From the NCBI GenBank assembly GCA_026625185.1, contig CP113000.1:495622-527621 (forward strand): a stretch of DNA of 32,000 bases. The letters run 5' to 3'. This document shows, piece by piece, positions 588 to 28,922 of the stretch. How positions within the stretch are numbered: the first letter of the stretch is position 1; the number at the start of each line of letters is the position of its first letter. This DNA is from Thermodesulfobacteriota bacterium (GTDB lineage: Bacteria > Desulfobacterota > WTBG01 > JAGOGO01). The translations under genes and the position numbers were made by a program. The notes under the pieces are model-generated. The model searched no databases. It saw nothing but the letters and a program-made list of their open reading frames with translations, and had not been told where the DNA came from.

Positions 588-589
588 TC

Positions 590-3295: not shown

Positions 3296-3359
3296 GTCCA
3301 TAAAATCATAAAATTCTTAACAACTGGTCTTATACGGACCAATATAAACATTGTTAGCT
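3296..3359 (+). repeat. attC-like site, family-1 copy A
   Basis: TTAACAA (3317-3323) is complementary to TTGTTAG (3351-3357). Inner hairpin tggtc-ttatac-gacca. Core GTTAGCT at 3353-3359. Conserved left extension gtccataaaatcataaaatt. The EVE-nuclease gene starts 26 nt later. Confidence 0.55.
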
Positions 3360-3384
3360 ATCCTGATTTTTTGTAGGAGGCAAT

Positions 3385-4398
3385 ATGAATACAAACCGTA
3401 AATCACCCTTCTTACTTAATGGGGTGGTGGCAAATTGGGTCATAGGGAAGACGAAGGGAATCTGGGGGCTCCCGCTAAAGGGACTGACATGGGACTGTGC
3501 GATAGCCCACCTACAAGAACTTGGATTCATCGCAGGTTCCGAAGTCTTGGCCATTTCAGGCCCCAAGGCTCATTTTAGGGCTGTCATCGGGAGCGCCCGT
3601 GGTGTTTATTTTGACACGAGTCCACTATGGCCATTCGGTCGGGGTAGAGAAATCTATCCTGTCAGGATTGAACTGACCAATATCCAGGATATAAATCAGG
3701 ATTGGTTCAACGGGCCCAAAGGTGACTTATGGCGCGTACCATTACAGGACGTATATTTTTCAAAGAGAAGTCTCTATGTCCTCCCTCCTCAGAGTTTTAA
3801 ATACCCTCATGTCAACCAAACCACCGTTTTTGGCACTGCACCCCACAGTTCGGGCGTCCCTCCTACATCTGTTTCGGACTTCATTTCCCTTGAAGATGGC
3901 ACTGCACAGGCATTTTCCCAATTCGGCTTTAAGATTGAACAATTGGGCCACAAACGGCCTTTGGAACGCGTTCCCGATGGCATTGGTATGTTACAACGAT
4001 CCCTTGCCAATTACGCAAAGACCTTGAACGCTAGTCCCTATTTTGTTGTCTGGGACTGTAAATATGACTGTGGCCCCAACGGCCTGAAAGCAGCAGACGA
4101 ACGAGCCATCAAAGAGTACATTGAAACCTACGCTCCAACAAGAAAGGCTGAGGCTGACGCTGGCGTGTTTTGGTTTCTGATTGTCGCCCGCGATAAAGCA
4201 GTTGCAGATAAGGTCTACTCCGGAGTTTCTCAATGGACATGGGTCGGTGAATGTCACCGGCTTGGGCTACGGGGTCTTCGAGTTATCTCTTTATCCACTT
4301 TATTGGGCCTAGTCAAGACCCGCCAATCAGTGGTTGACACAGATGATTTCTTGTTAAGTCTGCTGCCGCGCGAATTTGCCAAACCCTATCTTGGGTAG
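3385..4398 (+). CDS. EVE (PUA-like) domain fused to PD-(D/E)xK restriction-endonuclease-like domain
   Basis: SD aggagg at 3375-3380. The N-terminal ~110 aa fit the archaeal-type EVE pattern (NWVIGKTKGIWGLP ... GSEVLAISGP..FRAVIGSARGVYFD..PLWP ... YPVRIEL). The C-terminal half has 'VPDGIG ... FVVWDCKYD' (PD ... D-x-K). Confidence 0.6.
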   Translation: MNTNRKSPFLLNGVVANWVIGKTKGIWGLPLKGLTWDCAIAHLQELGFIAGSEVLAISGPKAHFRAVIGSARGVYFDTSPLWPFGRGREIYPVRIELTNIQDINQDWFNGPKGDLWRVPLQDVYFSKRSLYVLPPQSFKYPHVNQTTVFGTAPHSSGVPPTSVSDFISLEDGTAQAFSQFGFKIEQLGHKRPLERVPDGIGMLQRSLANYAKTLNASPYFVVWDCKYDCGPNGLKAADERAIKEYIETYAPTRKAEADAGVFWFLIVARDKAVADKVYSGVSQWTWVGECHRLGLRGLRVISLSTLLGLVKTRQSVVDTDDFLLSLLPREFAKPYLG

Positions 4399-4404
4399 GG
4401 CAAT

Positions 4405-4469
4405 AGCTAACGCTGCGGTTGCACAAGGACCGTTCGTGACCACGGGGTTTGTGAGCCGTTGCGTTAGGA
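4405..4469 (+). repeat. integron attC site
   Basis: AGCTAAC (4405-4411) ... GTTAGGA (4463-4469). CTAACGC pairs with GCGTTAG (7 bp). An inner stem CGGTT/CACAA vs TTGTG/AGCCG has one bulged G. Length 65 bp. It starts 7 nt after the stop of the upstream gene, and the next gene starts 25 nt after it. Confidence 0.7.
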
Positions 4470-4493
4470 ACTTTATTATAATGGAGGTATTTA

Positions 4494-5411
4494 ATGGCCA
4501 ATCTTTTTTGGAAGACCCCCAAAGGTGTCTCAGCATTGTTAGCTACTCCCTTTAAGTCTGAAGAAGAATTTGAAAAAATAATCTTCGAGTCATCTGAAGT
4601 CCTAGAAGATATTTTTCTTCTGAAACGTCAGGTTAGAGGAGGTGCAAAGCCAGGTATTCCTGATATTCTCGGTCTAGACAGTGATGGTAATATCTGCATA
4701 ATTGAGTTGAAGAATACAACAGTTGATGCTTCAATAATTCCACAAGTACTACAATATGCCTTCTGGGCGGAACGAAACCCAGATTCAATCAAAAGTCTTT
4801 GGCTGGAAAAAGAAGAAAGACCAGATGATCTTGAAATAAGCTGGGATAACCTCCAAGTTAGGATTATTATTATTGCCCCTTCCATTCTTCGGTCAACCCT
4901 TGGTCTTGTCAATAAGATCAACTACACCGTGGATCTCATTGAACTGAAAAGATGGGTTGAGGGTGATAGCCAGTTTATGCTGGTGAATAAACTTGAAGAA
5001 GTTGAAAAAGTGTCAAAAGCAAAACCAGTAAGTGGCCTTCAGCACTATGATGAGATGTTCTACAAAGGACACTATAACAGCAAGAGCGCAGAACACTTTA
5101 TAAGGTATATCAGGGAGGTGGAGAAACTTGTCCATAGCGAAAAGTGGCCACTCGAGACCAAATTTAATAAATCCTACTGCGGGTTCAAAGCAGGTTTTTT
5201 CAATGCCTTTGGCATTAAATGGATTGGGTCAAAGACCTTTGCATTCTTTTTTAAATTGCCAAACAAAGAAGCAGAACGAATTAAAAAGGGCATGACCAAG
5301 TACGAGACTCCATGGAAGGAGGCAGTTTATTACATTGATCCAACAAAGACTAAAGTTGTCGACTTCAAGCCATTGTTCGAGGCCGCATTCAAGAGACTTA
5401 CAGGAGATTAA
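4494..5411 (+). CDS. NucS/DUF91-like PD-(D/E)xK nuclease with unrelated C-terminal domain
   Basis: SD ggagg at 4483-4487. 'GIPDILGLDSDGNICIIELKNTTVDASIIPQVLQYAFW' matches D ... E-x-K ... Q..Y of NucS/RecB-like nuclease domains. The C-terminal ~130 aa (KFNKSYCGFKAGFFNAFGIKWIGSKTFAFFFKL) resemble DUF4268/DUF5655-type modules (tentative). Confidence 0.65.
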   Translation: MANLFWKTPKGVSALLATPFKSEEEFEKIIFESSEVLEDIFLLKRQVRGGAKPGIPDILGLDSDGNICIIELKNTTVDASIIPQVLQYAFWAERNPDSIKSLWLEKEERPDDLEISWDNLQVRIIIIAPSILRSTLGLVNKINYTVDLIELKRWVEGDSQFMLVNKLEEVEKVSKAKPVSGLQHYDEMFYKGHYNSKSAEHFIRYIREVEKLVHSEKWPLETKFNKSYCGFKAGFFNAFGIKWIGSKTFAFFFKLPNKEAERIKKGMTKYETPWKEAVYYIDPTKTKVVDFKPLFEAAFKRLTGD

Positions 5412-5412
5412 T

Positions 5413-5560
5413 GCCTGTAATAAATGGCTCTATCGGACGGCATACTGCCGCCGCTGATTTCAATCATTATAGCTGAAAAATGAATTATTCACATTTTCAA
5501 CATCGACATAATTTCGCATTATGGTGTGCTGCCCGTGCTGTGCAACGCACGGTGAGCTTG
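5413..5560 (+). repeat. possible long, degenerate attC site
   Basis: Canonical core GTTAGGC at 5554-5560, 61 nt before the next start codon. The left end has only a degenerate inverse core (GCCTGTAAT, 5413-5421) and arm complementarity is weak. There is an internal hairpin ccgtgc/gcacgg (5533-5551). Confidence 0.25.
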
Positions 5561-5621
5561 GTCGTTAGGCCCCTAATATGTTTTTTTGTGGAAACATTTT
5601 ATTAATAAAAGGAGGCTTTAC

Positions 5622-6716
5622 ATGCCGCTAGAAATCGGTATCTGGCGAATTGATAGTGGCCTGAAACAAGTGGACTTTGGGCCGCTGGATATTGAGTCGC
5701 GCTTGGAAGATATCCTAGACAACAATATTGGCATTGCTTCACCGAACTGGCATGTTATAGGGCGACAGGTACGCACTGATCATGGTTTTTTTATCGACTT
5801 GCTCGCAATCGACCGAGACGCTAACCTCGTCGTGATTGAGCTCAAACGTGATAGGACCCACCGCGATATAGTAGCCCAAGTGCTCGACTATGGTTCGTGG
5901 GTTCGGGATCTCAAGGATGACCGGATAGCTCAGATCTTCGATGAATACCAGAAACGATGGCATCCGGACAGAATTATGATTTCCATTGATGAGTCGTTCA
6001 AAAAGAAGTTCGGTATCGCAATGCCAGATGAAATGAATTCCTCTCATGAACTTGTGGTGGTAGCATCGAGTTTGGATCCGAGCACGGAGCGTGTAGTTCG
6101 CTACTTAGCTGACGAATATGATGTTCGTATCAATGCAGTTTTCTTCCGAGTGTTCCGTGATGGCGACCGCGAGTACTTGAGCAGGGCATGGTTCCGTGAT
6201 CCTGCTGAAGTGAGTGCAGGCATGGACGAAGAGACCGTCGCCGGTGAGTGGAACGAGGAGTACTATGTATCCTTCGGTTACGACACGGAAGTTGTGCGCG
6301 ATGGACTTAATAGGGGCTATCTCGTCGCTGGAGGCGGTTCGTGGTACTCGAAGACGCTTGCGATGCTCGAGCTCGGCGCACGCATTTGGGTGAATGTGCC
6401 CGGGTTAGGCTATGTCGGAGTTGGTAAGGTCACGCAAGAGATGCAGCCGGTCGACGAGTTTACCGTGACCGATCAGGCCGGCAAACAGGTGTCGATCATT
6501 GAAGTATCACCGGCAGCAGCATCGCTTAGGCGAGCGAAGGATGATCCTGAAAAGGCAGATTACTTGGTACGGGTCGAATGGCTGAAAACTGTCGACCCAA
6601 ACCAGGCCATCCACGAGAAAGGATTCTTCGGGAACCAGAACTCCGTTGCCCGGCCTCGTTCGCCAAAATGGAACCATACAGTAGAGCGTCTCAAAATACG
6701 ATTTGGGGTCGAGTAG
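5622..6716 (+). CDS. NucS/DUF91-like PD-(D/E)xK nuclease with C-terminal beta-rich (reader-like?) domain
   Basis: I prefer the ATG at 5622 (SD aaaggagg at 5608-5615) over the listed 5586 start. 'FIDLLAIDRDANLVVIELKRDRTHRDIVAQVLDYGSWV' is the same nuclease signature as in 4494-5411. The C-terminal 170 aa (GGGSWYSKTL..GARIWVNVPGLGYVGVGKV ... YLVRVEWLKTV) are of unknown function. The gene is visibly GC-richer than its neighbours. Confidence 0.65.
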   Translation: MPLEIGIWRIDSGLKQVDFGPLDIESRLEDILDNNIGIASPNWHVIGRQVRTDHGFFIDLLAIDRDANLVVIELKRDRTHRDIVAQVLDYGSWVRDLKDDRIAQIFDEYQKRWHPDRIMISIDESFKKKFGIAMPDEMNSSHELVVVASSLDPSTERVVRYLADEYDVRINAVFFRVFRDGDREYLSRAWFRDPAEVSAGMDEETVAGEWNEEYYVSFGYDTEVVRDGLNRGYLVAGGGSWYSKTLAMLELGARIWVNVPGLGYVGVGKVTQEMQPVDEFTVTDQAGKQVSIIEVSPAAASLRRAKDDPEKADYLVRVEWLKTVDPNQAIHEKGFFGNQNSVARPRSPKWNHTVERLKIRFGVE

Positions 6717-6737
6717 AGGAGGGGGTGAGAGATAGAA

Positions 6738-6791
6738 GTCCATAATCTTAACAACTGAGCCTTACGCGGATCAATATAAACATTGTTAATA
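6738..6791 (+). repeat. attC-like site, family-1 copy B
   Basis: gtccataat-CTTAACAAC (6747-6755), hairpin tgagcc-ttacgc-ggatca, then atataaacattGTTAATA (core 6785-6791). It matches copy A with a deletion in the left extension. Confidence 0.55.
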
Positions 6792-6804
6792 TCTTAAAAA
6801 CGAC

Positions 6805-7062
6805 ATGGTAAAAATCACACGATTTCCTGGTTGTAAAGAAAGACGGCGGCGCCTGAATCTGGCCGAAGGTCGCGTATCGTGCCAAGTGTCCTCTCGCTGG
6901 TTGCAGTTCCCTGAGAATGCCACCGCCCTTTCTGACGGCACATATCTGGTTGTTAACGTCATGACGCTCACGCCAGAGGAGAAAGAAAGAAAAATATGCG
7001 AGCTGGTACTTCTCAAGGAAGATCTGCTTGCCATACTTGAGAAATTGCCTACAAAAGAATGA
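6805..7062 (+). CDS. hypothetical small protein (weak call)
   Basis: 85-aa ORF. Only the C-terminal third (MTLTPEEKERKICELVLLKEDLLAILEKLPTKE) looks protein-like, so the true start may be the internal ATG. No recognisable domain. Confidence 0.3.
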   Translation: MVKITRFPGCKERRRRLNLAEGRVSCQVSSRWLQFPENATALSDGTYLVVNVMTLTPEEKERKICELVLLKEDLLAILEKLPTKE

Positions 7063-7090
7063 ACATATCTTGCATTCGCAATTTTGAATT

Positions 7091-7462
7091 ATGGACATCA
7101 CGGTAAAACATCTTGAGGAAGCATGTTTTGATCTCGCGCGCTCAACAAAAGGGGAGATGCGCCCCGTTGATATATCCGAGATAACAGACCTATCGAAAAA
7201 ATTTCTTGCAGTCGCGCTTCAGGAAGAAGAGATCGGCAGAGAACTCGGCGTAACAATCCCTTTACTAACAAGGGCGGTACATTATTTGCGGGAAGCACAT
7301 GCAATACCGCCAATGGGGGGAGACATAGTCTGGTTTAAGAATATGCTTACGGCTGTCCTTGAGATTGCCTGTCCCAATGCTGGCCTTGACGGTCAAGGAA
7401 AGGCCTTCTTGCGCGATCTCCTCAAGGGGATTGGCTCTTTTTTGGATGACAATGAAACCTAA
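7091..7462 (+). CDS. hypothetical protein
   Basis: 123-aa ORF with an unbiased helical-looking sequence, in the same cassette as 6805-7062. The stop codon lies inside an ACCTAAC inverse-core-like heptamer (7457-7463). Confidence 0.5.
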   Translation: MDITVKHLEEACFDLARSTKGEMRPVDISEITDLSKKFLAVALQEEEIGRELGVTIPLLTRAVHYLREAHAIPPMGGDIVWFKNMLTAVLEIACPNAGLDGQGKAFLRDLLKGIGSFLDDNET

Positions 7463-7471
7463 CAAGGGAAG

Positions 7472-7567
7472 GTCCCTAAAATTATAAAATTCTTAACAAC
7501 GGGGTTTTATGCCGACTAAAATCAATTATATGGGTGTTATATAGAAACCATATAAGCATTGTTAGGT
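7472..7567 (+). repeat. attC-like site, family-1 copy C
   Basis: gtccctaaaattataaaattCTTAACAAC (7492-7500), a ~50-nt variable hairpin (ggggttt ... aaacc), then atataagcattGTTAGGT. The core at 7561-7567 fits GTTRRRY exactly. Confidence 0.55.
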
Positions 7568-7585
7568 AGCTGAGAGAGCAGAGCA

Positions 7586-8068
7586 ATGGTCCTTTTTCTC
7601 AAAAACCTCTTATTCACGTTGGTCGTTCCGGGCACAGTCGGAGTCTTTCTCCCCCTAAAGATAGCCGGGGGTCATTCTTCCGCGTCAGGATTGGCCTTCG
7701 CGACCGCCTGCGCTTTTTTCGCTATAGCCACATCGATTTATTTGTGGTGCGTGTGGAATTTCGCTGTGTTTGGGCGTGGCACACCAGCGCCAATTGATCC
7801 TCCCAAGAAACTCATCATGCGCGGGCTCTATCGGTACACCCGAAATCCGATGTATTTGGGAGTCCTCACAGCGATCTTGGGTTGGGCAATCCTTTTTAGA
7901 GCTACGACCTTGGTCTTCTATGCCATGGTGGTGGGAGCTTGCTGCCATCTGTTCATTGTCTTCTATGAGGAGCCCCATCTTCAACGTACATTCGGGAAGG
8001 AGTACGACGATTACCGCGCTCAGGTGAACCGGTGGCTTCCAAAACCCTGGCACAAGTTGGGAGCTTAA
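7586..8068 (+). CDS. isoprenylcysteine carboxyl methyltransferase (ICMT/PEMT)-family membrane methyltransferase
   Basis: 160 aa with 4-5 TM helices. 'GLYRYTRNPMYLGVL' is the family signature, and it is followed by 'EEPHLQRTFGKEYDDYRAQV'. Confidence 0.7.
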   Translation: MVLFLKNLLFTLVVPGTVGVFLPLKIAGGHSSASGLAFATACAFFAIATSIYLWCVWNFAVFGRGTPAPIDPPKKLIMRGLYRYTRNPMYLGVLTAILGWAILFRATTLVFYAMVVGACCHLFIVFYEEPHLQRTFGKEYDDYRAQVNRWLPKPWHKLGA

Positions 8069-8139
8069 AAATTATAAGGCCTCCCGTTGTCACGAGAAAA
8101 AACTTTGGTTGGAGTATACACTCAAAAAAATTGTTAGCA
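8062..8139 (+). repeat. attC-like site, family-1 variant (type 2 left arm)
   Basis: The right arm aaaaaaattGTTAGCA (core 8133-8139) matches family 1. The left arm cttaaaaattataaggcctccc is shared with 10725-10738. ataaggcctcc is complementary to ggagggcctcat at 8146-8157. Confidence 0.4.
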
Positions 8140-8188
8140 CGTTGTGGAGGGCCTCATATGGTGTGTAAATTCGATTTTTCGGCATCCC
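8124..8188 (+). repeat. 65-bp repeat, copy 1 (shared upstream element of two protease cassettes)
   Basis: Aligns with 9017-9082. There is a 22-nt perfect block aaattcgatttttcggcatccc (8167-8188 = 9061-9082) plus the shared blocks ggagggc and tcatat. Confidence 0.7.
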
Positions 8189-8268
8189 CCAGGGGGGTTA
8201 AATTCTATAATTCCATTAATTCTATTCAGCCGCCCGTTAAATTTGTGGCTGATATTTTAGGAGGGTAA
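8158..8268 (+). CDS. possible 36-aa upstream ORF (MVCKFDFSASPRGVKFYNSINSIQPPVKFVADILGG)
   Basis: The ATG is preceded by ggaggg with a 6-nt spacer. Its stop (8266-8268) lies inside the SD of the downstream protease gene. 'KFDFSAS' is also encoded in the second repeat copy, but without a start codon. Confidence 0.3.
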   Translation: MVCKFDFSASPRGVKFYNSINSIQPPVKFVADILGG

Positions 8269-8273
8269 CAACC

Positions 8274-8894
8274 ATGACTCTTATCATTGCAGCTATTTGT
8301 AGGGATGGGGTACTAATCAGATCCGATAAAAGAAGAAAAGTCATGAACTCATCAGGGGAGATTATATACTATGACGATATGGACAAAGTTTTCGTCTCTG
8401 CAGATAAAAGAACTATTATCTACAATCACGGAATCAACGTAATCAAAGGCAAGTCGTGGTATGACCTTGCTATCAGAGCAGAAAATGCAATAAGGAAAGA
8501 AAGTGCTGATGATATCGATACAGCACTTAACAAAGTCGAAAACACCATATCGGCTGAAGTGCTTGCCGAAATATCAAATAATCAACTCGACGATTTCTGT
8601 GCATTTGTAGTGATTCTCAAGACGAGCGGAAACCAGTGGCAGGCAAAGGATATTTCTTGGAAACGTGGAGAAGGCGTCAAAAAGACTCCCCTCGGAAGGA
8701 TCATTTTATCAGGCTCAGGTGAAAAATACATCAAACGGGACAAAAAATGGTGGAATAACAATTACTGGGCATCCCTTAGTATGGACGAAGCCAAAGGGCA
8801 GATTGAAAGGCTTTACTCGATGGCTATCAAAAATCAAAACAACGCTCAAGGAGACGAATTCTCATCGTCATTTAATGATGTGATGGTAACTTGA
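8274..8894 (+). CDS. stand-alone proteasome-beta/HslV-like Ntn (Thr) hydrolase
   Basis: Strong SD aggaggg. 'M-TLIIAAICRDGVLIRSDKR' puts Thr at position 1 after Met removal and Asp at 17. 'DKVF' supplies the Lys (about position 37), and 'ILSGSGEKY' matches the GSG motif of proteasome beta subunits. No alpha-subunit or ATPase partner is adjacent. Confidence 0.6.
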   Translation: MTLIIAAICRDGVLIRSDKRRKVMNSSGEIIYYDDMDKVFVSADKRTIIYNHGINVIKGKSWYDLAIRAENAIRKESADDIDTALNKVENTISAEVLAEISNNQLDDFCAFVVILKTSGNQWQAKDISWKRGEGVKKTPLGRIILSGSGEKYIKRDKKWWNNNYWASLSMDEAKGQIERLYSMAIKNQNNAQGDEFSSSFNDVMVT

Positions 8895-9016
8895 CCCAAC
8901 AAAATGATTGGGTTGACCTTGCCCTACTCGGTAATTGTCTTTTAGTGGTTGTGCAAGACGAAAGAAATAACCCCCTTGAAACAGAAGTTCGAGGATTACA
9001 CATTTAATACAAACCC

Positions 9017-9082
9017 AAAAAAAATTTTGGCGCATTGAGGAGGGCTCATATAGGCCCGGCAAATTCGATTTTTCGGCATCCC
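9017..9082 (+). repeat. 65-bp repeat, copy 2
   Basis: See 8124-8188. The ATG of the small ORF is ATA here and the reading frame is shifted. Confidence 0.7.
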
Positions 9083-9102
9083 GCCCTCTTTTTCGGCAAC
9101 AA

Positions 9103-9159
9103 CTAACAACCTGAAAGTCAGTCCAAGCGAAAAAAATAAAATTTTGATTGTTTTTTAGC
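9103..9159 (+). repeat. degenerate attC-like site (family-1-like)
   Basis: CTAACAAC (9103-9110), hairpin ctga-aag-tcag, then ttgattGTTttttAGC (9148-9159), which resembles cattGTTAGC with a T-run insertion. Confidence 0.3.
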
Positions 9160-9304
9160 CTTTTACGATTTAATATTTAAAAACATTTGGCCCTCGGATT
9201 ATTTGCGGAAACCTTATGCAAGGCTAATGAAATAAAACCATGGCGCTTCACTACTTGGGTTTTAGATCAGTATAAAAATTGCTGGGGGGTGTTGGAGACA
9301 ATAT

Positions 9305-10369
9305 ATGTCGAAACACAGGCGGTTGAAAAATTTTATACCTGCTCCAAAGCAGGTTGTATCTACCGTAGTGCCTAAGATTAACATGGTTGAGTCATTATAT
9401 GATTCGATCATTGAAGGCAATGAGTATGGAAGCATTGTTTCCGTAATTCCAAAGCCAGAGATTGATCTCATTGATGAAATTATTAAAGGCCTTAAAGCTG
9501 TACAATTCATTAGGTTACGACCTTGTTTGGCTTATATTGGGAATGTGATCCGATCTGATGACTATTCAGGCATTGTAACAGCGGATGATTTGCCATTTGC
9601 CGAAATGATAAAAGGAGTTCCCAAAGATACCGAAAGCGTAGATGTCTTTCTTGCAACGATGGGTGGCTCCGCTCATCAGGTAAGCAGATTTGTAAATTTC
9701 TTACGGGCACGATTTAAAGAAGTAGACTTCCTTGTCCCATCATTCTGTATGAGTGCTGGCACTCTATTTGCTCTTTCGGGTGATCATATTTGGATGAATC
9801 CTACTGCTTGCCTTGGTCCTATCGATCCACAAGTGCCCACAAAAGATGGAAGATTCGTCCCAGCACAGGCTTTGCTTCTTCTCATTAGCCAATTACAAGA
9901 ACAAGGCGATGAAGCTTTAAAGAACAAGGGGGCAGTGCCATGGACAGCTGTACGAATTATCGACAGCCTCGACAAGAAAGAATTGGGTGACGCAATTACT
10001 GCCTCGACCTATTCCATTACAATGGCAACCCAATTCCTTATTCAGTACAAATTCAAAAATTGGCAAACTAGGGAAACAAGCCAAATACCCGTCACGGATC
10101 AATATAGGCAAACTCGAGCTTTTGAAATCGCGTCAGCTCTAGCTGCACATGATCGATGGAAAAACCATGGACATTCCATCTCAAGAGATGTATTATGGAA
10201 TGAGATAAAGCTCCAGATTGACCACCCATCACCGGACTTGGAGAAGGCGATATCTAAGCTGTGGGCTCTATTTTTTTGGGTTTTTGACAAAACTCCAATT
10301 ATTAAACTAATAGTCTCGGAAAATTATCGTTTTGCTCGGCATTCCATCATTTTGGAGAAGAAACTATGA
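9305..10369 (+). CDS. SDH-family (serine dehydrogenase proteinase) ClpP/crotonase-fold serine protease
   Basis: 354 aa, SD ggaga. 'VDVFLATMGGSAHQVSRFVNFLRARFKEVDFLVPSFCMSAGTLFALSGDHIWMNPTACLGPIDPQV' matches the SDH/SppA-like core, including the nucleophile Ser in 'MSAGT'. Confidence 0.7.
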   Translation: MSKHRRLKNFIPAPKQVVSTVVPKINMVESLYDSIIEGNEYGSIVSVIPKPEIDLIDEIIKGLKAVQFIRLRPCLAYIGNVIRSDDYSGIVTADDLPFAEMIKGVPKDTESVDVFLATMGGSAHQVSRFVNFLRARFKEVDFLVPSFCMSAGTLFALSGDHIWMNPTACLGPIDPQVPTKDGRFVPAQALLLLISQLQEQGDEALKNKGAVPWTAVRIIDSLDKKELGDAITASTYSITMATQFLIQYKFKNWQTRETSQIPVTDQYRQTRAFEIASALAAHDRWKNHGHSISRDVLWNEIKLQIDHPSPDLEKAISKLWALFFWVFDKTPIIKLIVSENYRFARHSIILEKKL

Positions 10370-10605
10370 TTGAAAAAAATCTCCTAATGCAGCTCGGTTG
10401 GTCGGAAGACCTTATAGATGAAGTAACTAGGGTCTCCAACGAACTTTCGCGAAGCCAACCCTCGCTACCTCAAATCGGACAGACTCCATCGGCTCTTTAC
10501 TCCGACACTTGTGATTCACTTTTCTATAATAGCGACCAATCAAACACAACCGATCAGCTGATTTCGGCCCATAGAAGCCAGATCAAACCATCTCACGGTG
10601 CATAA
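10366..10605 (+). CDS. hypothetical 79-aa protein, translationally coupled to the SDH protease
   Basis: The ATGA overlap with the upstream stop (10366-10369) indicates coupling. The sequence is Ser/Gln/Thr-rich and probably disordered after an N-terminal helix. No recognisable domain. Confidence 0.45.
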   Translation: MIEKNLLMQLGWSEDLIDEVTRVSNELSRSQPSLPQIGQTPSALYSDTCDSLFYNSDQSNTTDQLISAHRSQIKPSHGA

Positions 10606-10724
10606 TGGGCGATCAGCTGGGAAGATAATTTGTTTTCTCATAACGCGTGACCGCGATTCATACCAGCAGGATTTCTATAGACACTGCGTAGAATTTCACA
10701 TACTATCAAAGAGAAGCCAAACAC

Positions 10725-10782
10725 TTATAAGGCCTCCCATTTTCAGGAGAAAAGAATTCTCCTAAAAGCAAAAGGAGGGAGG
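10725..10782 (+). repeat. type-2 repeat / attC-like remnant
   Basis: ttataaggcctccc(a)tt(t)tca(g)gagaaaa matches 8072-8100. Perfect inner hairpin aggagaa-aagaa-ttctcct. cctccc is complementary to gggagg (10776-10782). Confidence 0.35.
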
Positions 10783-10858
10783 AAACTTGCCAAATCGGAA
10801 TGGGCGTTTTTAGCTATTTCTGGCTAATTTTATATATTTTTGCAGGACTAAAGGCCTT

Positions 10859-11131
10859 TTATCTTTTTTCTCCTCTTTCGGTTGCCCCTTCAGTAGACTT
10901 TTCAGTCGCTGCTTCCAGCCTCTCTATTGCTTTCTCTACTTCTGCCCGTTTTTCTTCAGGAATAAGCCCCCGCTTCGAGCTTGCTTACCAAAAGTAGTTT
11001 CATCAAGCGGTTATCTATATGAACCTCTTGGGCAACTTCACTCTCTACTTTATTTATCTTCGGTGCCCCAGCACTATCCAATATGCTTTTAGCATTCGTT
11101 AACTGAATAGCTTCAATTTTCGAATCCCCTC
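10859..11131 (-). pseudogene. frameshifted C-terminal gene fragment of unknown family
   Basis: The minus strand reads ...GDSKIEAIQLTNAKSILDSAGAPKINKVESEVAQEVHIDNRLMKLLLVSKLEAG. It then continues in the +1 frame as LIPEEKRAEVEKAIERLEAATEKSTEGATERGEKR*. No start codon is present. Confidence 0.3.
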
Positions 11132-11405
11132 ATAAATTTCCAACCTGTGTAAAATTGGTCTAGTCAAACTCAAACGAAAAGTGTGCCTGGGGTCTTAGGG
11201 GGGTCTACACCCTTGTAGAAACTAGTCCCTTGAAGAAGAGTAGTGCCGGTGAGAATAGAGCCCTTTGTTGAGGTAATGGTATGAGTACTGGCCTGACTAC
11301 TTTTCAGTTTGTTACACAAAAAAAGTGGGGACAATGTGGGGACAAAATTGGTTGGGAAACAAAAAAGGACTTGGCTGTATCTAGCTAAGTCCTTAATTTT
11401 GTTAA

Positions 11406-11479
11406 CGCGCCCAGGGTGACTCGAACACCCAACCTACGGATTCGTAGTCCGGTACTCTATCCAATTGAGCTATGGGCGC
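11406..11479 (-). tRNA. tRNA-Arg (anticodon ACG)
   Basis: The reverse complement folds as a cloverleaf: acceptor GCGCCCA/TGGGCGC, D-loop AATTGGATA, anticodon loop CT-ACG-AA, T-arm GGGTG-TTCGAGT-CACCC, discriminator G. CCA is not encoded. There is one C/T mismatch at the top of the anticodon stem. Confidence 0.93.
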
Positions 11480-11545
11480 AAAAAAATTAATTTATAATAA
11501 CATTTTTTACCCTTTTCGTCAATATCTTATTCAAAGATATTTTCC

Positions 11546-11917
11546 TCAGCCTTTTCTTTGATAAAACCTAAGGATTAAAAGTCCATAGATGATGATATTG
11601 ATAGTCAATACAAAGACTCCCAAGGTAACCTGCAAACTTCGGGTTAGTTCCTGAGGGTAAATCAAAGGAAAAATATAGTGTTCGATAAACCCCTCCTGAA
11701 AGGCATGTGCTCCGTTTTGTTTTAACAGCCAGGTTTCAAGGTAGGTAAGCGGGCAAATCCATCCGGCGAATTCGATTAAGGCAGCCCATAAAAAAGCCGG
11801 GACATGGATCCAGGCCAGTCGCTTCCATTTTAACGCCAAAAATCCACCTAAAACCGCGAATAAAACAAAAACGAAATGAAGCGCCATAACGAAATCAGCC
11901 AGAACCCGGAAAAGCAT
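11546..11917 (-). CDS. DUF2784-family membrane protein
   Basis: 123 aa with 4 TM helices. 'HFVFVLFAVLGGF ... WIHVPAFLWAALIEFAGWICPLTYLE' fits the DUF2784 pattern (CPLT motif). Confidence 0.6.
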   Translation of the reverse strand: MLFRVLADFVMALHFVFVLFAVLGGFLALKWKRLAWIHVPAFLWAALIEFAGWICPLTYLETWLLKQNGAHAFQEGFIEHYIFPLIYPQELTRSLQVTLGVFVLTINIIIYGLLILRFYQRKG

Positions 11918-20944: not shown

Positions 20945-20946
20945 CC

Positions 20947-24313: not shown

Positions 24314-24786
24314 CCCTCTCCCCTTTTTATAGGCATCCCATTTTCCCTCCACTCTTCCCAACCTCCTTCAAATACTTTCACCAGAGCATACCCGTTTTCT
24401 TTAAGTAAAAAGGCCAGGTCTTCGGCATTGGAACATTCCAGCCCCTCACAATACGTGATAATTTCCCGGTCACACGGGATGTCTTTGAGGACAACCGAAG
24501 CTTTTTCAGAAAATTCATAATAAGGAAGGTTCTTCGCCCCGGGAATGTGACCTTCGGCAAATTCTTCCGGCGAGCGGGCATCGAGAATGACAACCCCGGG
24601 CTGTTCATATCTTCCCTTGAGCGTCTGGAGGGAGATGGTATTGCTGTCCTTATTTTCAGAGAGAGGGGATAATAGTTTGGGTCTCAGAAGAGGGAGGCCA
24701 TCAGAGCGAAAAAAGTTGGTCACAAAAGCCAAAATTGTCGCAAAAAGAAAAATACCTATGAACTCTATAATTGATCGTTTCAACAT
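24310..24786 (-). CDS. membrane-anchored rhodanese-domain sulfurtransferase
   Basis: N-terminal TM helix. 'VILDARSPEEFAEGHIPGAKNLP' and the active-site loop 'ITYCEGLECSNA'. Coupled to the DoxX/MauE gene. Confidence 0.8.
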   Translation of the reverse strand: MLKRSIIEFIGIFLFATILAFVTNFFRSDGLPLLRPKLLSPLSENKDSNTISLQTLKGRYEQPGVVILDARSPEEFAEGHIPGAKNLPYYEFSEKASVVLKDIPCDREIITYCEGLECSNAEDLAFLLKENGYALVKVFEGGWEEWRENGMPIKRGEG

Positions 24787-24877
24787 TACCGGTAAAAGTG
24801 CTGCCCAAAAAAAAACCTCCTGCCTGAGAAAAGAAGCTTTTGGGGCAAAAAAATATTATTAATTACGTAATCCTAAT

Positions 24878-25081
24878 TTATTCAAGCTCTAAAGATTGGT
24901 CCATCTCAATGACCGGTTCACTGAAAATAATCACCGTCTGTGATATGGGTAAAAATATCCGATGACGATTTTCTTTAATTTTAATGACAAGATCATAATA
25001 GCCCTTTTCATTTGTCTGCTGGAGAACCCCGGAGGTACCTTTTAGTCCAAGAAGCTCATTATAGATAAAAACTTTCTCCAT
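24878..25081 (-). CDS. hypothetical 67-aa protein
   Basis: Clean ORF with an SD-like aaaggacgcc upstream. Beta-rich sequence, no recognisable family. Confidence 0.45.
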   Translation of the reverse strand: MEKVFIYNELLGLKGTSGVLQQTNEKGYYDLVIKIKENRHRIFLPISQTVIIFSEPVIEMDQSLELE

Positions 25082-25210
25082 GGTGGCGTCCTTTGTTGAG
25101 ATTATCAGAACCAGGTGCTTATCTTTTATAATCAGCTAAATTTAATGTTCCAATGCTTCATATTATATTGTATCATCAGACAATTTTGTCAAGGAATTAT
25201 TTGAAATCTA

Positions 25211-25239
25211 TTGACAATTTCATTTAAACAGAATATAAA
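25211..25239 (+). promoter_or_regulatory. near-consensus sigma-70 promoter reading into cassette array 2
   Basis: TTGACA (25211-25216), 17-nt spacer, TATAAA (25234-25239). The -10 overlaps the start of repeat copy F. Confidence 0.4.
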
Positions 25240-25451
25240 TCTTTTAATCTAAGCAAGTTTGAGGGCACTATCGGATAAAACCAGGATTTGCGAAGTAAAA
25301 TCAATTCCCTGGGAAAAAGGACAGCTTACTTAGAAGCGGGAGTACCAAGGGAGGGTGGGGTCAATCAAGGCGATGCTTCCTTCGTGGAAACCGCCCGCTC
25401 TACCGCAAAAAAGGCCGGGTGATTTACTTACTCTATAATTAATTGTTAAAC
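25234..25451 (+). repeat. family-1 repeat copy F (diverged, ~150-nt structured insert)
   Basis: The left arm ataaatcttttaatCTAAGCAAG ... ggcacTATCGGA resembles aaatcataaaattCTTAACAAC ... ggtcTTATACGGA. The right arm ctataattaattGTTAAAC has a core at 25445-25451 that fits GTTRRRY. The interior has long-range stems (gaagcggg/cccgctc, ccaaggga/tccttcgtgg). Confidence 0.4.
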
Positions 25452-25463
25452 TGGAGGAAAGCT

Positions 25464-25775
25464 ATGAAAAAAATTATAATAATTGCAATGTTAATTAGTC
25501 TTTTGTCTATCCCTGCCGGGTCATTCGCCCAAACAGGCGATCGTCCCTGTCCCACAATGGGTGAAAAGCTTGCAGATTTATGCCTTCTAAGGCCTGTTTG
25601 CCTTGTCGGGGCCTGCGTGTCTACCGGGCTTTGTGTTGCCGTTTCTATCCCAGCAACTCTTATGGGGGCCGGTCCAGAGGTTGGCGATGCCCTATTTGTA
25701 ACTCCCTGGCGATACACTGCTGATAGACCACTTGGCGAATTTTGTTATTATAAAGACGGCACCCCGATAAGATAA
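25464..25775 (+). CDS. small secreted protein, hypothetical
   Basis: ATG at 25464 with SD ggagga at 25453-25458. Signal peptide MKKIIIIAMLISLLSIPAGSFA|Q. The mature ~80 aa are Cys-rich. No known family. Confidence 0.55.
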   Translation: MKKIIIIAMLISLLSIPAGSFAQTGDRPCPTMGEKLADLCLLRPVCLVGACVSTGLCVAVSIPATLMGAGPEVGDALFVTPWRYTADRPLGEFCYYKDGTPIR

Positions 25776-25834
25776 TTAAAATATTTTTACTTTAATTAAT
25801 GAGGATTGAGGGCAATGCTTTTCACAAAATAAAA

Positions 25835-25876
25835 AAGGCCGTATTGCCATAAATAAAATGGCAAGGGCCTTTTTCT
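25835..25876 (+). terminator. rho-independent terminator
   Basis: aaggccgtattgccat / atggcaagggcctt stem (ggcc and ttgccat/atggcaa paired, small internal bulge) followed by tttttc. Confidence 0.65.
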
Positions 25877-25902
25877 GCTTTGGGGAGTAGCACAATCGGT
25901 TC

Positions 25903-26110
25903 AATCTGAAATTTTAACAGGGGTGTTATGCCGATCCGTATAACACACCTACAAAAACGGTGGGTATTTTAAATAAACTGTAATAATCAACCATTATGGC
26001 TCAATTTTAAGATGCTTTTTAGGTGTCTTATATGGATTGGGTAACCAATTTGGGGACTTATATTTATCCGTATAATCACTGTTAAGTTCCATCAAATTCA
26101 ATCGTTATAG
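25903..26110 (+). repeat. family-1 repeat copy E (long, ~208 bp)
   Basis: The left arm aatctgaaatTTTAACAGgggtgttatgccgat matches copy C closely (cTTAACAACggggttttatgccgac). The right arm ccatcaaattcaatcGTTATAG (26104-26110) resembles copy D (ccaatataactatcGTTATGC). It contains the direct repeat ATCCGTATAAYCAC at 25934 and 26066. Confidence 0.45.
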
Positions 26111-26118
26111 GAGGGCGT

Positions 26119-26970
26119 ATGACTATCTATGAACAGTTGTTAGATTACTGTGAGGCACAGAAACGAATATATGGAAAGGTGACCTTCACATCAGGTGAAT
26201 TGAAAGACGCTCTTCTCGAAAGCCATGGCACTCCCAGAACCAGCACCCTTCCACCAGACTATTGTTACAACATTATGAACGATGGTATTCATTTCAAGCA
26301 TCATCTATTTGAACAAATTGGAGAAACCTACAAGTTCTTGGGTCCAGGCTATCTGTATTCCGGGGTCATTACCTGGAAAGGTACCCCAGTGGGTGCTTGG
26401 CAAGAAGGCAGCTTCTTCTTATGGAAATTGTTTCGGAAGGTAAATCGCAGGTATTACAGGCCCGAGTTGAGGCCAACAGAAACGAGCGAGGCAAGTCCAG
26501 GTACTCTTCAAGAGGTGATTGAGCGTGGTAATATTTCTCCTGGCTCTTTGCATACGGTTGATAGCCCGGCTCCAGAAGAAAACCTTTTGCTTCCCTTTAT
26601 TGATGTTCGGGAGGTCCAGAGAAAGGACGCAACAGTTTCAAGAATCATAAGAGACACCAAGCAAACAAAATTGATTAAGCAACTCTACAAACATTGCTGC
26701 CAGGTTTGCGGAATCGCATTGCAGACATCTGCCGGTCCCTATGCTGAAGCTGCTCATATCGTTCCCCTTGGCCAACCGCATAATGGATCAGACACAGTCG
26801 ACAATATTCTATGCCTTTGCCCAAACCACCATGTTCTATTCGACTATGGCGCATTCTCAGTCAGCGATTCTCTTATCCTATTGGGAATGCCCGGAAAATT
26901 ATCCGTGCATCCACAACATATAATCAGCAAGAAGTACCTTGCGCATCACAGAAATCGAAACATTAAATAA
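26119..26970 (+). CDS. HNH_2-type endonuclease with uncharacterised N-terminal domain
   Basis: SD aggaggg. The C-terminus 'CCQVCGIAL ... YAEAAHIVPL ... DTVDNILCLCPNHHVLFDYGAF' is the HNH_2 motif seen in type IV (modification-dependent) restriction enzymes. The N-terminal ~180 aa (PPDYCYNIMNDGIHF ... FEQIGETYKFLG) are unassigned. Confidence 0.8.
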   Translation: MTIYEQLLDYCEAQKRIYGKVTFTSGELKDALLESHGTPRTSTLPPDYCYNIMNDGIHFKHHLFEQIGETYKFLGPGYLYSGVITWKGTPVGAWQEGSFFLWKLFRKVNRRYYRPELRPTETSEASPGTLQEVIERGNISPGSLHTVDSPAPEENLLLPFIDVREVQRKDATVSRIIRDTKQTKLIKQLYKHCCQVCGIALQTSAGPYAEAAHIVPLGQPHNGSDTVDNILCLCPNHHVLFDYGAFSVSDSLILLGMPGKLSVHPQHIISKKYLAHHRNRNIK

Positions 26971-26979
26971 ACACTTGGC

Positions 26980-27037
26980 ACCTAACCAAAGGATTCACCG
27001 GTTGGCTTAAAGCCGCCGGTGATCCTTGCAGTTGGGC
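26980..27037 (+). repeat. integron attC site (canonical, 58 bp)
   Basis: ACCTAAC (fits RYYYAAC, 26980-26986) ... GTTGGGC (fits GTTRRRY, 27031-27037). AAGGATTCACCGG pairs with CCGGTGATCCTT with one extrahelical T. Apical stem ggctt/aagcc. Confidence 0.85.
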
Positions 27038-27062
27038 AGTAATTTAAAGCGAATTAATTTAT

Positions 27063-27908
27063 ATGGGTCATCATTATCTACCACAATATTATTTAAAAGG
27101 ATTTACAGAAACGCCCGATAATATGTTATGGGCTTATGAAAAAGGTACTGGAAATAAATTTAATACTCAAATCAAAAGCTTAGCCAATATTACAGATTTT
27201 TATTCGGAGGAAACCGAACAATATTTAGCAAATGACATTGAAGGTCCAGCAAATGAGGTTCTTGATAAAATTCGTAGTCGGCATTTAATCAGTGAAGAAG
27301 ATAAAAATACTTTTGCAGAGTATATGGCAGTAATGTGGAAACGTGTACCTCGTGCGAAAGAATATTTAAAAAACATGGCACCTCGCCTTGCCGATGAAAT
27401 AGGAAAAAAATTGAGCACTGATTTGAGTTATATAGTTGAGCAAGCGCCGGAAAAAACGGAGTTTATAGAAAAGCGACAAAAGGAAATCGACGATATTTTA
27501 GCAATTTATGCCACAGATCCCCCTAAAGATATTTGGCTGGGAAATATTCCTCCAGAACGAACACCAAGAATTGTTGAGGCAATGAAGGCAATGACTTGGA
27601 CATTCTGGGAATTTGATCAATATCCAGCATTTTTAACATGCGATAATCCGGTTTTCTATTTCACGTGGATGGGTGTTGGAAAAAAAGAATCAGAGATTTC
27701 CTTTCCAATTTCAAGTCATATTGTTTTATGGGCGACATGGAGAGCAGATTTGCCTCGTAATTTCATAACGGCTTCTTCCCAAATTGTAAAGGAAATGAAC
27801 AGAAGAATTGTTCACAATGCGAACAGGTTTGCTTTTCATTGCAGAGATGAGCATTGGATAGTTCCTTTTATAAAAAAGGAAATTTGGAAGCTGAATCGAA
27901 TTGCGTAA
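27063..27908 (+). CDS. DUF4238 domain protein
   Basis: The N-terminal 'HHYLPQYYLKGF' is the DUF4238 signature. 281 aa, a single-gene cassette between two canonical attC sites. Confidence 0.8.
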   Translation: MGHHYLPQYYLKGFTETPDNMLWAYEKGTGNKFNTQIKSLANITDFYSEETEQYLANDIEGPANEVLDKIRSRHLISEEDKNTFAEYMAVMWKRVPRAKEYLKNMAPRLADEIGKKLSTDLSYIVEQAPEKTEFIEKRQKEIDDILAIYATDPPKDIWLGNIPPERTPRIVEAMKAMTWTFWEFDQYPAFLTCDNPVFYFTWMGVGKKESEISFPISSHIVLWATWRADLPRNFITASSQIVKEMNRRIVHNANRFAFHCRDEHWIVPFIKKEIWKLNRIA

Positions 27909-27925
27909 TTTTGAATTTAATGTTT

Positions 27926-27992
27926 GCCCAACCAGGCGTTTCACCGACCCACTAGGGCTTCGGCGAGTGGGCCGGTGAACTAATCGTTCGGT
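27926..27992 (+). repeat. integron attC site (67 bp)
   Basis: GCCCAAC (27926-27932), unpaired spacer CAGGCG / CTAATC, and a 14-of-15-bp stem TTCACCGACCCACT / AGTGGGCCGGTGAA. The core GTTCGGT (27986-27992) has one deviation from GTTRRRY. Confidence 0.8.
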
Positions 27993-28003
27993 GAATAATT
28001 ATA

Positions 28004-28699
28004 GTGTCCTTTAAAATGAATGCATATGCTTTAAATCTCGCAGTTCTTGAAGGTCATGGAAATGTAGAAAAAAATGCTTTTGAACTAAGCTATGGTTTAT
28101 TTCATGGTACAGCTTTTGGTATCGCTCTTGATTTGTTTCTGACTGCTGCCCACGTTTTCAAAGATGCTCAGGGAGATGGCGAAGTAGCCTTGGCTCGGCT
28201 TACACCCGGCCACTTCCATGCTCAGACGGTAAGGGATTTTGAAATTTTTGATGATATTGACCTCGCTCTTCTGAATTGTAATAACCTGTCTGCAGAGATA
28301 TTGCCATTTAACTTTACACCCCTCAATTTTCTTGTTGATGTTTTCACTATGGGTTATCCCTTTGGATTCGAACCTCCAGTTTACCACCTTAGGGCCTTCA
28401 AAGGGCATATTGTTACCCGTCGAGGCTTGACAAGCTTGCCGGGAGTTCCTCTTGGATATGAACTATCGTTTGTGCCACCACCGGGATTATCGGGTGCCCC
28501 GCTTCTGACACTCTTGCCTGACGGTTCTCCAGTGATAGCAGGAATGGTACTTCAGCATCATATTGCAGAGTACCGCAAACGCCGAATGGAATTAGGGATA
28601 GCTCTCGATATAGGAGAAATACTCACTTTGGAAAGCCGAATTGTTGGGGGTAATATAGCTGAACGACTTTTTAATCGAAAACGTCTTGTTCGCAAATGA
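28004..28699 (+). CDS. cytoplasmic trypsin-like (S1/Trypsin_2) serine protease
   Basis: Catalytic triad motifs in the correct order: 'FLTAAHVF' (His), 'DIDLALL' (Asp), 'PPPGLSGAPLL' (Ser). No signal peptide. The start is either GTG 28004 or ATG 28016. Confidence 0.7.
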   Translation: MSFKMNAYALNLAVLEGHGNVEKNAFELSYGLFHGTAFGIALDLFLTAAHVFKDAQGDGEVALARLTPGHFHAQTVRDFEIFDDIDLALLNCNNLSAEILPFNFTPLNFLVDVFTMGYPFGFEPPVYHLRAFKGHIVTRRGLTSLPGVPLGYELSFVPPPGLSGAPLLTLLPDGSPVIAGMVLQHHIAEYRKRRMELGIALDIGEILTLESRIVGGNIAERLFNRKRLVRK

Positions 28700-28737
28700 A
28701 AGCAATAAAGACAGACATTGAGAACACCGAACAAACT

Positions 28738-28788
28738 CATTAACTCGGACTGGCAATTTCGCTGCGCTCCATTGTCATCCGGTTATGC
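28738..28788 (+). repeat. integron attC site (short, 51 bp)
   Basis: CATTAAC ... GTTATGC (TAAC/GTTA paired). cggaCtggcaat pairs with attgtcatccg with one bulged C and one mismatch. 13-nt loop. Confidence 0.65.
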
Positions 28789-28814
28789 GGAGCTTTATAT
28801 TAAAAAAAGGGAAT

Positions 28815-28922
28815 GTCCCTAAAATCATAAAATTCTTAACAACGGCTCCTTATGCTGAATTTTTTTATAAATTAGATAATACATTTTGGTTTTTATAGGG
28901 ACCAATATAACTATCGTTATGC
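28815..28922 (+). repeat. attC-like site, family-1 copy D
   Basis: gtccctaaaatcataaaattCTTAACAAC (28835-28843), a ~60-nt AT-rich variable region, then gggaccaatataactatcGTTATGC (28916-28922). It begins 26 nt after the preceding attC. Confidence 0.55.

Follow-up and report, generated by a model that had tools for sequence, protein, structure and literature searches.

Repeats between accessory genes of a Thermodesulfobacteriota bacterium share sequence with the attI sites of inverted-integrase integrons

The window analysed here is a stretch of 32,000 nucleotides from a Thermodesulfobacteriota bacterium (G000:C1:495,622-527,621, from a 3.30-Mb genome in a single contig with 44% GC), in which five copies of a repeat, designated A to E, lie among accessory genes on both sides of a housekeeping block. 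The centre of the window (11.4-25.1 kb) is composed of tRNA-Arg, DUF2784, recA, a PilT-like ATPase gene, recX, alaS, bamD, glmU, glmS and other housekeeping genes, and both of its flanks consist of accessory DNA. The AlaS protein groups with proteins labelled Thermodesulfobacteriota or Deltaproteobacteria bacterium. On the left, positions 1-11404 form the right part of a tRNA-Arg island and contain copies A, B and C. The island, 21.9 kb in total, is integrated at tRNA-Arg (11405-11480, minus strand) and reaches beyond the window, over G000 ~485,144-495,621. The 3' part of the tRNA recurs as a 45-nt direct repeat at window coordinate -10,477, next to a gene for a 414-aa tyrosine integrase, and homology to the sister genomes begins at the tRNA (window 11399). 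On the right, a variable island (25131-30075) contains copies E and D, and at its site G002, of the same genus, and contig L066 bear a DUF6125 gene instead. Here, G000 denotes the source genome and G001-G003 the three other genomes of the genus (84-95% complete), four in all with G000, while L-numbers denote compared contigs (e.g. L089-L112).

The repeat consists of a left arm, a centre of variable length and a right arm, and the left arm, inner motif and right arm quoted in the original prediction are correct. The short form has the consensus (G)AAAGAAAGGGGACGTCC-ATAAAATTATAAAATTC-TTAAC-AACGGG-GTCTTATA-CGGATCAA-TATAAAC-AYT-GTTAGGC. The left arm ends in the inverse-core-like TTCTTAAC, to which a genus-specific leader of 30-45 nt is attached, and the right arm is composed of CTTATRCGGATC, ATATAAAC, a 3-nt spacer and GTTAGGC. 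The centre varies as had been described, from an 8-nt loop in copies A and B to an extra ~37 nt in C, ~47 nt in D and ~140 nt in E. In the longer forms, the extra material lies between CTTATGCCGA and the last unit, U3, and the unit U2 (aGGTnTCTTATAnGGATTGGGTAACGCATTT) precedes U3. In the longest form, of which copy E is the type, hairpin 1, with perfect or nearly perfect pairing, is followed by ~80 nt of AT-rich spacer and then by U2 and U3. Hairpin 1 has a handful of variants with compensated stems, read by eye and without statistics (GTCTTAT/ATAAGAC, GTGTTAT/ATAACAC and GTTTTAT/ATAAAAC). MAFFT misaligned the right arms when short and long forms were aligned together, and arm-wise extraction was used instead.

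All five copies lie on the plus strand. Copy A (3285-3359) is of the short form. It opens with a purine-rich stretch and the far-left module GGGGATGTCC, followed by ATAAAATCATAAAATTC and the inverse-core-like TTCTTAAC (3314-3321), and continues with the attI-like unit CTTATACGGACC, the L-box-like ATATAAAC, the 3-nt spacer and the R box GTTAGCT (G at 3353); a ribosome-binding site (RBS) and the ATG of a 337-aa open reading frame (ORF) at 3385 come after it. Just upstream of this copy, window 3-2950 encodes a 786-aa DUF2357 + PD-(D/E)XK (PDDEXK_7) protein behind an ORF with an open 5' end, and we take the pair to resemble a McrBC-like restriction module. Copy B (6738-6791), also of the short form, lacks most of the left arm (GTCCATAA|TCTTAAC) and ends in the R box GTTAATA (G at 6785); it is located 22 nt past the stop codon of the PDC-S11 gene and 14 nt ahead of an 85-aa ORF. 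Copy C (7461-7567), an intermediate form with a full left arm and the R box GTTAGGT (G at 7561), begins at the stop codon of ORF 7091-7462. Copy D (28804-28922), a long form, comprises a full left arm, one half of a unit U1 (CCTTATGCTGA), a U2-like insert, U3 and the R box GTTATGC (G at 28916). This R box (28916-28922) contains an ATG (28919) that one gene caller takes as the start of a cation-efflux gene, and thus the crossover point would fall inside the translation start region. Copy E (25900-26087) has the appearance of a full-length orphan attI-type region, with hairpin 1 at 25920-25949 (GGGGTGTTATGCCGATCCGTATAACACACC), the AT-rich spacer, U2 at 26022-26051, U3 at 26052-26080 and the R box GTTAAGT (G at 26081); a terminator precedes it and an HNH/DUF7225 gene follows it (26119).

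The repeats are real and genus-specific. R1, a sequence-only covariance model made exclusively from short copies outside the window (ten, drawn from across the genome), matched the window in five places only, namely copies A (3289-3359, 74.4 bits), B (6745-6789, 34.7 bits, model 24-71), C (7465-7526 and 7532-7568), D (28808-28868 and 28888-28923) and E (25910-25943 and 26052-26087). Mechanical repeat finding placed A, C and D in one family, and A, B, D and E in another through the right arm (families D1-D3). The prediction of at least six copies on both flanks of the core is borne out in part: the family has five copies in the window and 52 elements in the genome, and only five of the eight copies listed, A to E, form one family. 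The listed copy F (25234) was not matched by R1 and is ordinary conserved intergenic DNA shared with the relative L069, which lacks the downstream island. Neither were the two presumed variants at 8062 and 9103, which fall in two other small repeats. These repeats, unrelated to the main family, pair 8062-8105 with 10715-10758 (family D5) and ~8120-8200 with ~9020-9090; one reads AAAAAAATT..GGAGGGC.TCATAT..AAATTCGATTTTTCGGCATCCC and the other AGC..A.A.TTATAAGGCCTCCC.TT.TCA.GAGAAAA.

Across the genome, 19 of the 52 elements have both arms, 18 the left arm only and 15 the right arm only. A 24-nt left-arm pattern (<=3 mismatches) has 27, 9, 12 and 5 matches within the genus, one count for each of its four genomes; the reversed control pattern has none there, and the left-arm pattern itself has no match in 37 other relatives. 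In the three sister genomes, R1 gave 26-35 matches each, many of them to the right arm only. One stretch of two elements and two genes is duplicated 4.25 kb apart with 100% identity (G000 2,459,700-2,460,330 and 2,463,960-2,464,585).

Folded attC sites define the cassettes of integrons, and each integron is viewed as having one docking site, attI. The genome bears traces of such integrons. No intact IntI integrase was found in the source genome (TIGR02249), in the window or in the genus, and 8 of 41 genomes of the class have one. Three remnants of intI are present in the source genome. The first (2,992,856-2,993,438) is frameshifted and truncated at the N-terminus, retains the IntI-specific patch ALDRKYPHA, and reaches 273 bits with its two pieces together (TIGR02249 positions 118-315). 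The second is a C-terminal stump (2,874,425-2,874,640), and the third a tail of ~36 nt (965,050-965,085) located directly after the terminator of another gene and followed by what appears to be a complete attI region and a gene (to 965,260). An E-type member of the repeat family lies directly after all three intI 3' ends, on the same strand, and beyond it come an RBS and a gene start, unless an insertion sequence (IS) interrupts. The stretch to the left of hairpin 1 in the E-type copies (..CAATCTGAAATTTT..) might be a relic of the last intI codons, to which its similarity is weak. Together with the co-oriented accessory genes that the repeats separate in cassette-like arrays, these remnants bear out the link to integrons that had been proposed for the family.

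When the 102 C-terminal residues of the remnant were searched against metagenome contigs, related IntI proteins of 61-84% identity were found in open frames of 340-367 aa. These genes are followed by the stop codon, hairpin 1, spacer, U2, U3 and GTTRRRY, and the G of GTT lies 166-171 nt past the end of the IntI match in ten contigs. Downstream of this attI, the contigs carry co-oriented cassettes whose attC sites are GC-rich and of the ordinary kind. In L092 (contig Ga0209270_1004228), the first cassette is duplicated (3188-3664 and 6666-7142), one copy standing after the attI-like site and the other after a canonical attC, and both start exactly at G|TTAGGT. These identical starts identify the site as attI and fix the crossover point, so that the duplication cleanly documents, in natural DNA, where this IntI clade crosses over.

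R1, which was blind to the contigs, placed 7 of its 15 matches on U3, 124-160 nt past the IntI match, in a search of 80 loci (355 kb, both strands) in which the target interval makes up < 1% of the search space. In an alignment of the right arms (A4), copies A-E are colinear with 14 attI cores, with the invariant pattern TTAT..C.GA.C..TATAA.C.TTGTT, and conservation ends after GTT. In a second alignment (A5), copy E is colinear over ~175 nt with six whole attI regions that follow intI genes, and the 30 invariant columns are found mainly in hairpin 1, U2 and U3. Because of the R1 matches and these two alignments, the right arm appears to be a truncated attI that retains about its last 33 nt, and copy E a complete orphan attI. 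The features expected of attI are an R box GTTRRRY with crossover at G|TT, an L box just upstream and further IntI-binding repeats; here, the boxes are present and conservation ends after GTT, and the crossover is shown in the relative L092. An attI also adjoins intI and occurs once per integron; this holds for the three long copies at the remnants, but not for the five copies in the window or the ~50 in the genome. On the 3' side of intact intI genes in other genera of the class no related sequence was found, and the related attI surfaced only through close relatives of the genome's own remnant. A U2 + U3 element also lies upstream of an intact intI in another organism (L107, contig SDBS01050537.1, 2170-2245), and thus an attI-type unit exists outside the genus and away from the position directly after intI.

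The original prediction had likened the repeats to the VCR-like attC family of a sedentary integron (VCR, Vibrio cholerae repeat), had flagged their asymmetry as atypical of attC, and had pointed to a complementarity of GTCCCTA and TAGGGAC that allows two alternative folds. According to the attC reading, IntI would recombine the sites as single-stranded DNA, each copy being folded into a bottom-strand hairpin that contains R and L boxes as well as extrahelical bases. By definition, an attC is 57-141 bp long, has R''-L'' and L'-R' regions together with extrahelical bases, and is crossed over on the bottom strand after the first base of R' (PMC12901181). The terminal motifs of such a site are present in the repeats: an R''-like TCTTAAC and the R' GTTAGGC enclose the element (TCTTAAC...GTTAGGC), with AAC and GTT near-invariant, although the first base of R'' is Y, not R. 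An L''-like GTcTTATA, one base longer than the L' TATAAAC, faces it with one unpaired C, but the helix itself is unsupported. The centre also varies in length, and the copies follow cassette ORFs in the right orientation.

For covariation, 32 distinct short copies from four genomes were aligned (A3) and three pairings were compared, namely the hairpin with the second AAC, the hairpin with the first AAC, and GTCC/GGAC. None of the three was supported. Pairable cells amount to 79-88% across the three folds, a property of the consensus, and the covariation measures equal the shuffled mean. The attC-type registers, with 83-88% of cells paired (83% in the register counted in favour of attC) and little variation, likewise do not differ from shuffled controls. 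The consensus does contain the complementarity of GTCCCTA and TAGGGAC, with 79% of cells paired, but this pairing does not exceed that of the shuffled controls. As no fold beats the shuffles, structure is not arguable either way from the family; and as no fold covaries, the outcome that was to overturn the prediction, covariation of the non-attC fold only, is left undecided.

As single-stranded DNA, the repeats fold weakly: the consensus folds with -1.1 kcal/mol on the top strand (z -0.04) and -2.2 kcal/mol on the bottom strand (z -1.5), and the window copies with -2.3 to -7.6 kcal/mol (z -0.2 to -2.9). The control, the canonical attC after the first cassette of the genome's own integron relic (81 nt, GCCCAAC-AAACG-...-CTTAAC-GTTGGCG), reaches -25.6 kcal/mol on the bottom strand (z -4.4) and -18.3 kcal/mol on the top strand. 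The box spacers of the repeat are 6 and 3 nt, as compared to 5 and 6 nt in attC, and the short form measures 46-47 nt from R'' to R', under the attC range, with the long forms (88-120 nt) inside it. The family thus passes the published definition of attC on terminal motifs only, and fails in hairpin stability, length of the main form and box spacing. Moreover, the right arm is homologous to attI, and the integrons of this IntI clade, including the genome's own relic, carry unrelated, ordinary GC-rich attC sites. We consequently regard a classical attC family as very improbable. The asymmetry would be explained if the right arm is a truncated attI that is read as double-stranded DNA: in a site bound as a duplex, as attI is, asymmetry is to be expected along with weak folding and a highly conserved sequence, and the weak folding and absent covariation fit such a site.

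The repeats are strongly oriented with respect to the genes that follow them. A co-oriented ORF of >=70 aa starts within 120 nt of the R end in 44/52 elements, as compared to 8/52 in the control orientation. The arrays at 1.438-1.444 Mb and 2.198-2.203 Mb are densely packed, each repeat having a single ORF, and one of the two arrays is interrupted by an IS30. In the window, the segment between copies A and B (3385-6716, plus strand) encodes the 337-aa protein of unknown function, PDC-S18 (4494-5411) and PDC-S11 (5586-6716). The latter two, side by side behind the 337-aa gene, are full-length PADLOC matches (446 bits for PDC-S18 and 430 bits for PDC-S11) and candidate defence genes, each with a weak NucS_C-like nuclease signature. 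Between copies B and C (6805-7462, plus strand) there are two small ORFs (85 and 123 aa) without a family match, and between copies E and D (26119-28699, plus strand) a DUF7225-HNH nuclease, a DUF4238 protein and a trypsin-like peptidase. Adjacent to the downstream end of the 2.198-2.203 Mb array, 2,197,100-2,197,690 encodes a 196-aa tyrosine recombinase that consists of the catalytic domain only, and which could be an alternative enzyme for these sites.

Given that the tightest link is to the start of the downstream gene, with the R end located 10-75 nt before the RBS or start codon, the repeat might instead be a portable cis-regulatory module (promoter, operator or 5' leader) by which accessory genes are driven or silenced, and a regulator or RNA polymerase, not a recombinase, would then account for its conservation. 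Hexamers of the type TTAACA/TTGACA and TATAAA/TATAAT are present; the right-arm-only copies follow terminators, and hence the next gene needs its own promoter; and attI regions in which intI points toward attI must also permit cassette expression. However, the hexamers are spaced by 21 nt in the main form and by 15 to >60 nt across forms, which misfits a single sigma-70 geometry, and a sigma-70 promoter was rejected as the main explanation on account of this spacing. No RNA-type covariation was seen, and a search of the window against Rfam at gathering thresholds returned tRNA-Arg only. Regulation would also leave the attI homology and the sharp end at GTT unexplained. As the whole account of the family, a regulatory module seems to us very unlikely, although it is possible and partly compatible with an origin from attI.

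The left arm presents a different problem. Its far-left module, GGGGACGTCCATAAAATTATAA(A/C)ATTCT, often follows tandem units of the GAAAGAAAGG type and also occurs alone. In the form GGGGACGTCCATAAAATTATAACATTCT, it stands as an inverted pair around a gene for a Y1_Tnp and DnaA_C-helix-turn-helix (HTH) protein (762,594-763,692; Y1_Tnp 42.9 bits), and it also lies ~300 nt upstream of two paralogues of this gene. The genome has four Y1_Tnp (IS200-like) genes of 314-335 aa (762,450-763,800; 834,350-835,900; 1,357,300-1,358,830; 835,990-837,400), each framed by inverted arms of short tandem repeats, e.g. TAAGAAGGGG x6, or GAAAATTTAG; the far-left module is near three of the four, and the C-terminal DnaA-type HTH is shown only for 762,622-763,626. 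The association of the left module with Y1 genes is real but unexplained, and it feeds two readings, one of which concerns the birth of cassettes and is taken up below.

According to the other, the family would be a self-spreading repeat moved by Y1 (HUH) genes, akin to repetitive extragenic palindromes (REPs) with their associated tyrosine transposases (RAYTs) or to MITEs (miniature inverted-repeat transposable elements), that contains or mimics an attI core, so that the link to accessory genes is secondary. The position of the module at the Y1_Tnp gene and its paralogues, the ~18 left-arm-only copies and the restriction of the family to one genus speak for it. The strong polarity toward the downstream gene, on the other hand, is unlike REPs and MITEs. 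The ends of the element are unrelated, with no terminal inverted repeats, and no target duplications were seen among ~50 copies. The right arm occurs alone, and beside intI in other taxa without the left module; the left module is not a hairpin, the 76-nt fold having a z of -0.24; and no insertion polymorphism of a bare element was found. The resemblance to REP/RAYT systems lies in a Y1_Tnp gene between inverted short repeats that also occur at dozens of extragenic sites, whereas the module here is non-palindromic, polar and fused to an integron-type site, and amounts to tens of copies, not hundreds. A Y1-driven repeat is possible and in part compatible with an attI origin, but as the sole explanation we consider it distinctly unlikely.

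We therefore favour, as somewhat more probable than its alternatives combined, the reading in which the repeats are integron-derived attI-type junction sites of decayed inverted-integrase integrons, rather than folded attC sites, and mark the joints of accessory and defence modules. The right arm would correspond to approximately the last 33 nt of attI, with one IntI-box-like unit, an L-like box ending in AAC and an R box cut between G and TT. More of attI would be retained in the long copies (U1 and U2), and in copy E the entire site, from hairpin 1 through the spacer and U2 to U3. The mobile unit would run from TTAGGC through the RBS, the gene or genes and the left arm to the truncated attI up to G. 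As with attI1, an IntI, whether supplied in cis or in trans, would bind chiefly the double-stranded form of the site. Recombination of two such sites, or of one with an attC or attI, would then lead to the exchange, insertion or excision of modules. In class 1 integrons, attI1 is bound as a duplex via the R box, the L box and upstream repeats, and cassettes of the delta-attI type as well as attI1-gene-attI1 units are excised and inserted by IntI1 (PMC12901181). Transcription of IntI toward attI is known in Treponema (PMC3607928), and an 'inverted integrase' group has been named (PMC3575428). Since every intI copy of the source genome is broken and G001-G003 yielded no intact IntI, the arrays, with the ones that flank the recA-alaS-glmS block among them, are most likely frozen relics; past mobility of the modules may nevertheless be supposed.

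The breakpoints between related loci bear on this reading. Two pairs share the same element (one of them also the upstream gene) but differ downstream; counted from the G of GTT, their divergence sets in at -3 and +5 nt, which fits the prediction of cassette logic. Clean indels of single cassettes were not readable in comparisons with G001-G003, L066 and L069, the flanks of the recA-alaS-glmS block having been exchanged wholesale on both sides.

Several observations weigh against a derivation from attI. The two copies of a duplicated cassette (1.441 vs 2.199 Mb) remain near-identical no further than TTCTTAAC of the element that follows, and an orthologous trio shares the downstream gene and the element from ~13 nt left of the AAC in TTCTTAAC. 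These breakpoints in the left arm imply that exchange also took place at or near the R''-like box, and the breakpoint evidence is therefore mixed and consists of few examples. No gain or loss was seen at the window copies, for which the contigs with identical cargo proteins have the same neighbours and, coming from near-identical strains, are uninformative. The conserved left arm has no counterpart in attI, and part of it flanks Y1-transposase-like genes. Since attI is normally present once per integron, ~50 dispersed copies are not predicted by attI biology. The window contains no intI, and none of the four genomes of the genus yielded an intact one, so that activity is not current here, although with the three relatives 84-95% complete the absence is not proven.

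A bolder version of the preferred reading is that the genus runs, or recently ran, cassettes with attI-type duplex sites in place of folded attC hairpins, in which attI-like exchange would be the main pathway, not a laboratory curiosity, and the left module shared with Y1 genes would plant sites by new genes. We consider this version unlikely, though not negligibly so.

Among known systems, the sites come closest to the cassettes of delta-attI type, in which the cassette site is likewise a truncated attI (L box, crossover G and TTRRRY) and not attC (PMC12901181). Their proposed origin, an uncommon crossover of the attI L box with the R'' of attC (PMC12901181), fits the R''-like TTCTTAAC that is joined here to sequence apparently derived from attI. 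With respect to boundaries, the anatomy agrees with that of delta-attI cassettes, and so do the two breakpoints near the G, whereas two comparisons break in the left arm. The delta-attI cassettes are, however, 26 sporadic cases in clinical class 1 and class 2 integrons, beside a working IntI. Here, the junction is dominant, with ~50 per genome in a whole genus, chromosomal, distributed over several islands, furnished with a long extra left arm and without an intact IntI.

The attI1 sequence of class 1 integrons reads ...CCCTAAAACAAAGTTAGGC. This site of 65 bp is composed of the direct repeats DR2 and DR1, an L box and the R box GTTRRRY, is bound by four IntI1 as a duplex, and resembles the right arm in its direct-repeat units upstream, its L-like box ending in AAC, the 3 nt that follow, GTTAGGC, and the dispensability of a stable hairpin. 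It differs in that sequence identity is confined to the R box, and in that the attI of the present clade has an additional palindromic hairpin, placed immediately behind the stop codon of intI, a gene that is directed toward attI. The L and R boxes of attI1 are quoted in PMC12901181. The layout of the genome's three relics and of contigs L089-L112 is that of the inverted-integrase integrons of Treponema denticola (PMC3607928), whose arrays have conventional attC sites and for which multiplied attI-like sites were not described.

Clusters of attC sites lacking integron-integrases (CALINs; PMC4889954) and the VCR arrays of Vibrio share with the arrays described here the co-oriented small accessory, toxin-antitoxin and defence genes split by one lineage-specific repeat, as well as the lack of a nearby integrase, with integrase remnants elsewhere in the genome. 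The layout is thus that of CALINs, with repeats in a row and co-oriented cassette-like genes, but CALINs are defined by folded attC (PMC4889954), whereas the repeats here do not conform to attC, being unfolded, shorter, differently spaced and homologous to attI. The present analysis contributes the homology of the repeat to attI, a canonical attC of the same genome as a control, and the removal from the family of F and of the presumed variants at 8062 and 9103.

If the sites are only fossils, these results provide a tidy explanation of an odd repeat family, of modest interest. They nevertheless point to a whole genus with ~50 putatively attI-derived junctions per genome, for which the only known parallel is a handful of clinical delta-attI cassettes. 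If the sites are, or until recently were, substrates of IntI, the range of DNA mobilised by integron integrases would widen, tools based on attC folding would overlook a class of cassette arrays, and genuine sites could appear 'non-canonical'. The left arm's link to the Y1 genes provides a testable clue to the way in which genes acquire recombination sites, and if the left module plants sites, it would represent a route of cassette birth, a long-standing question in integron biology.

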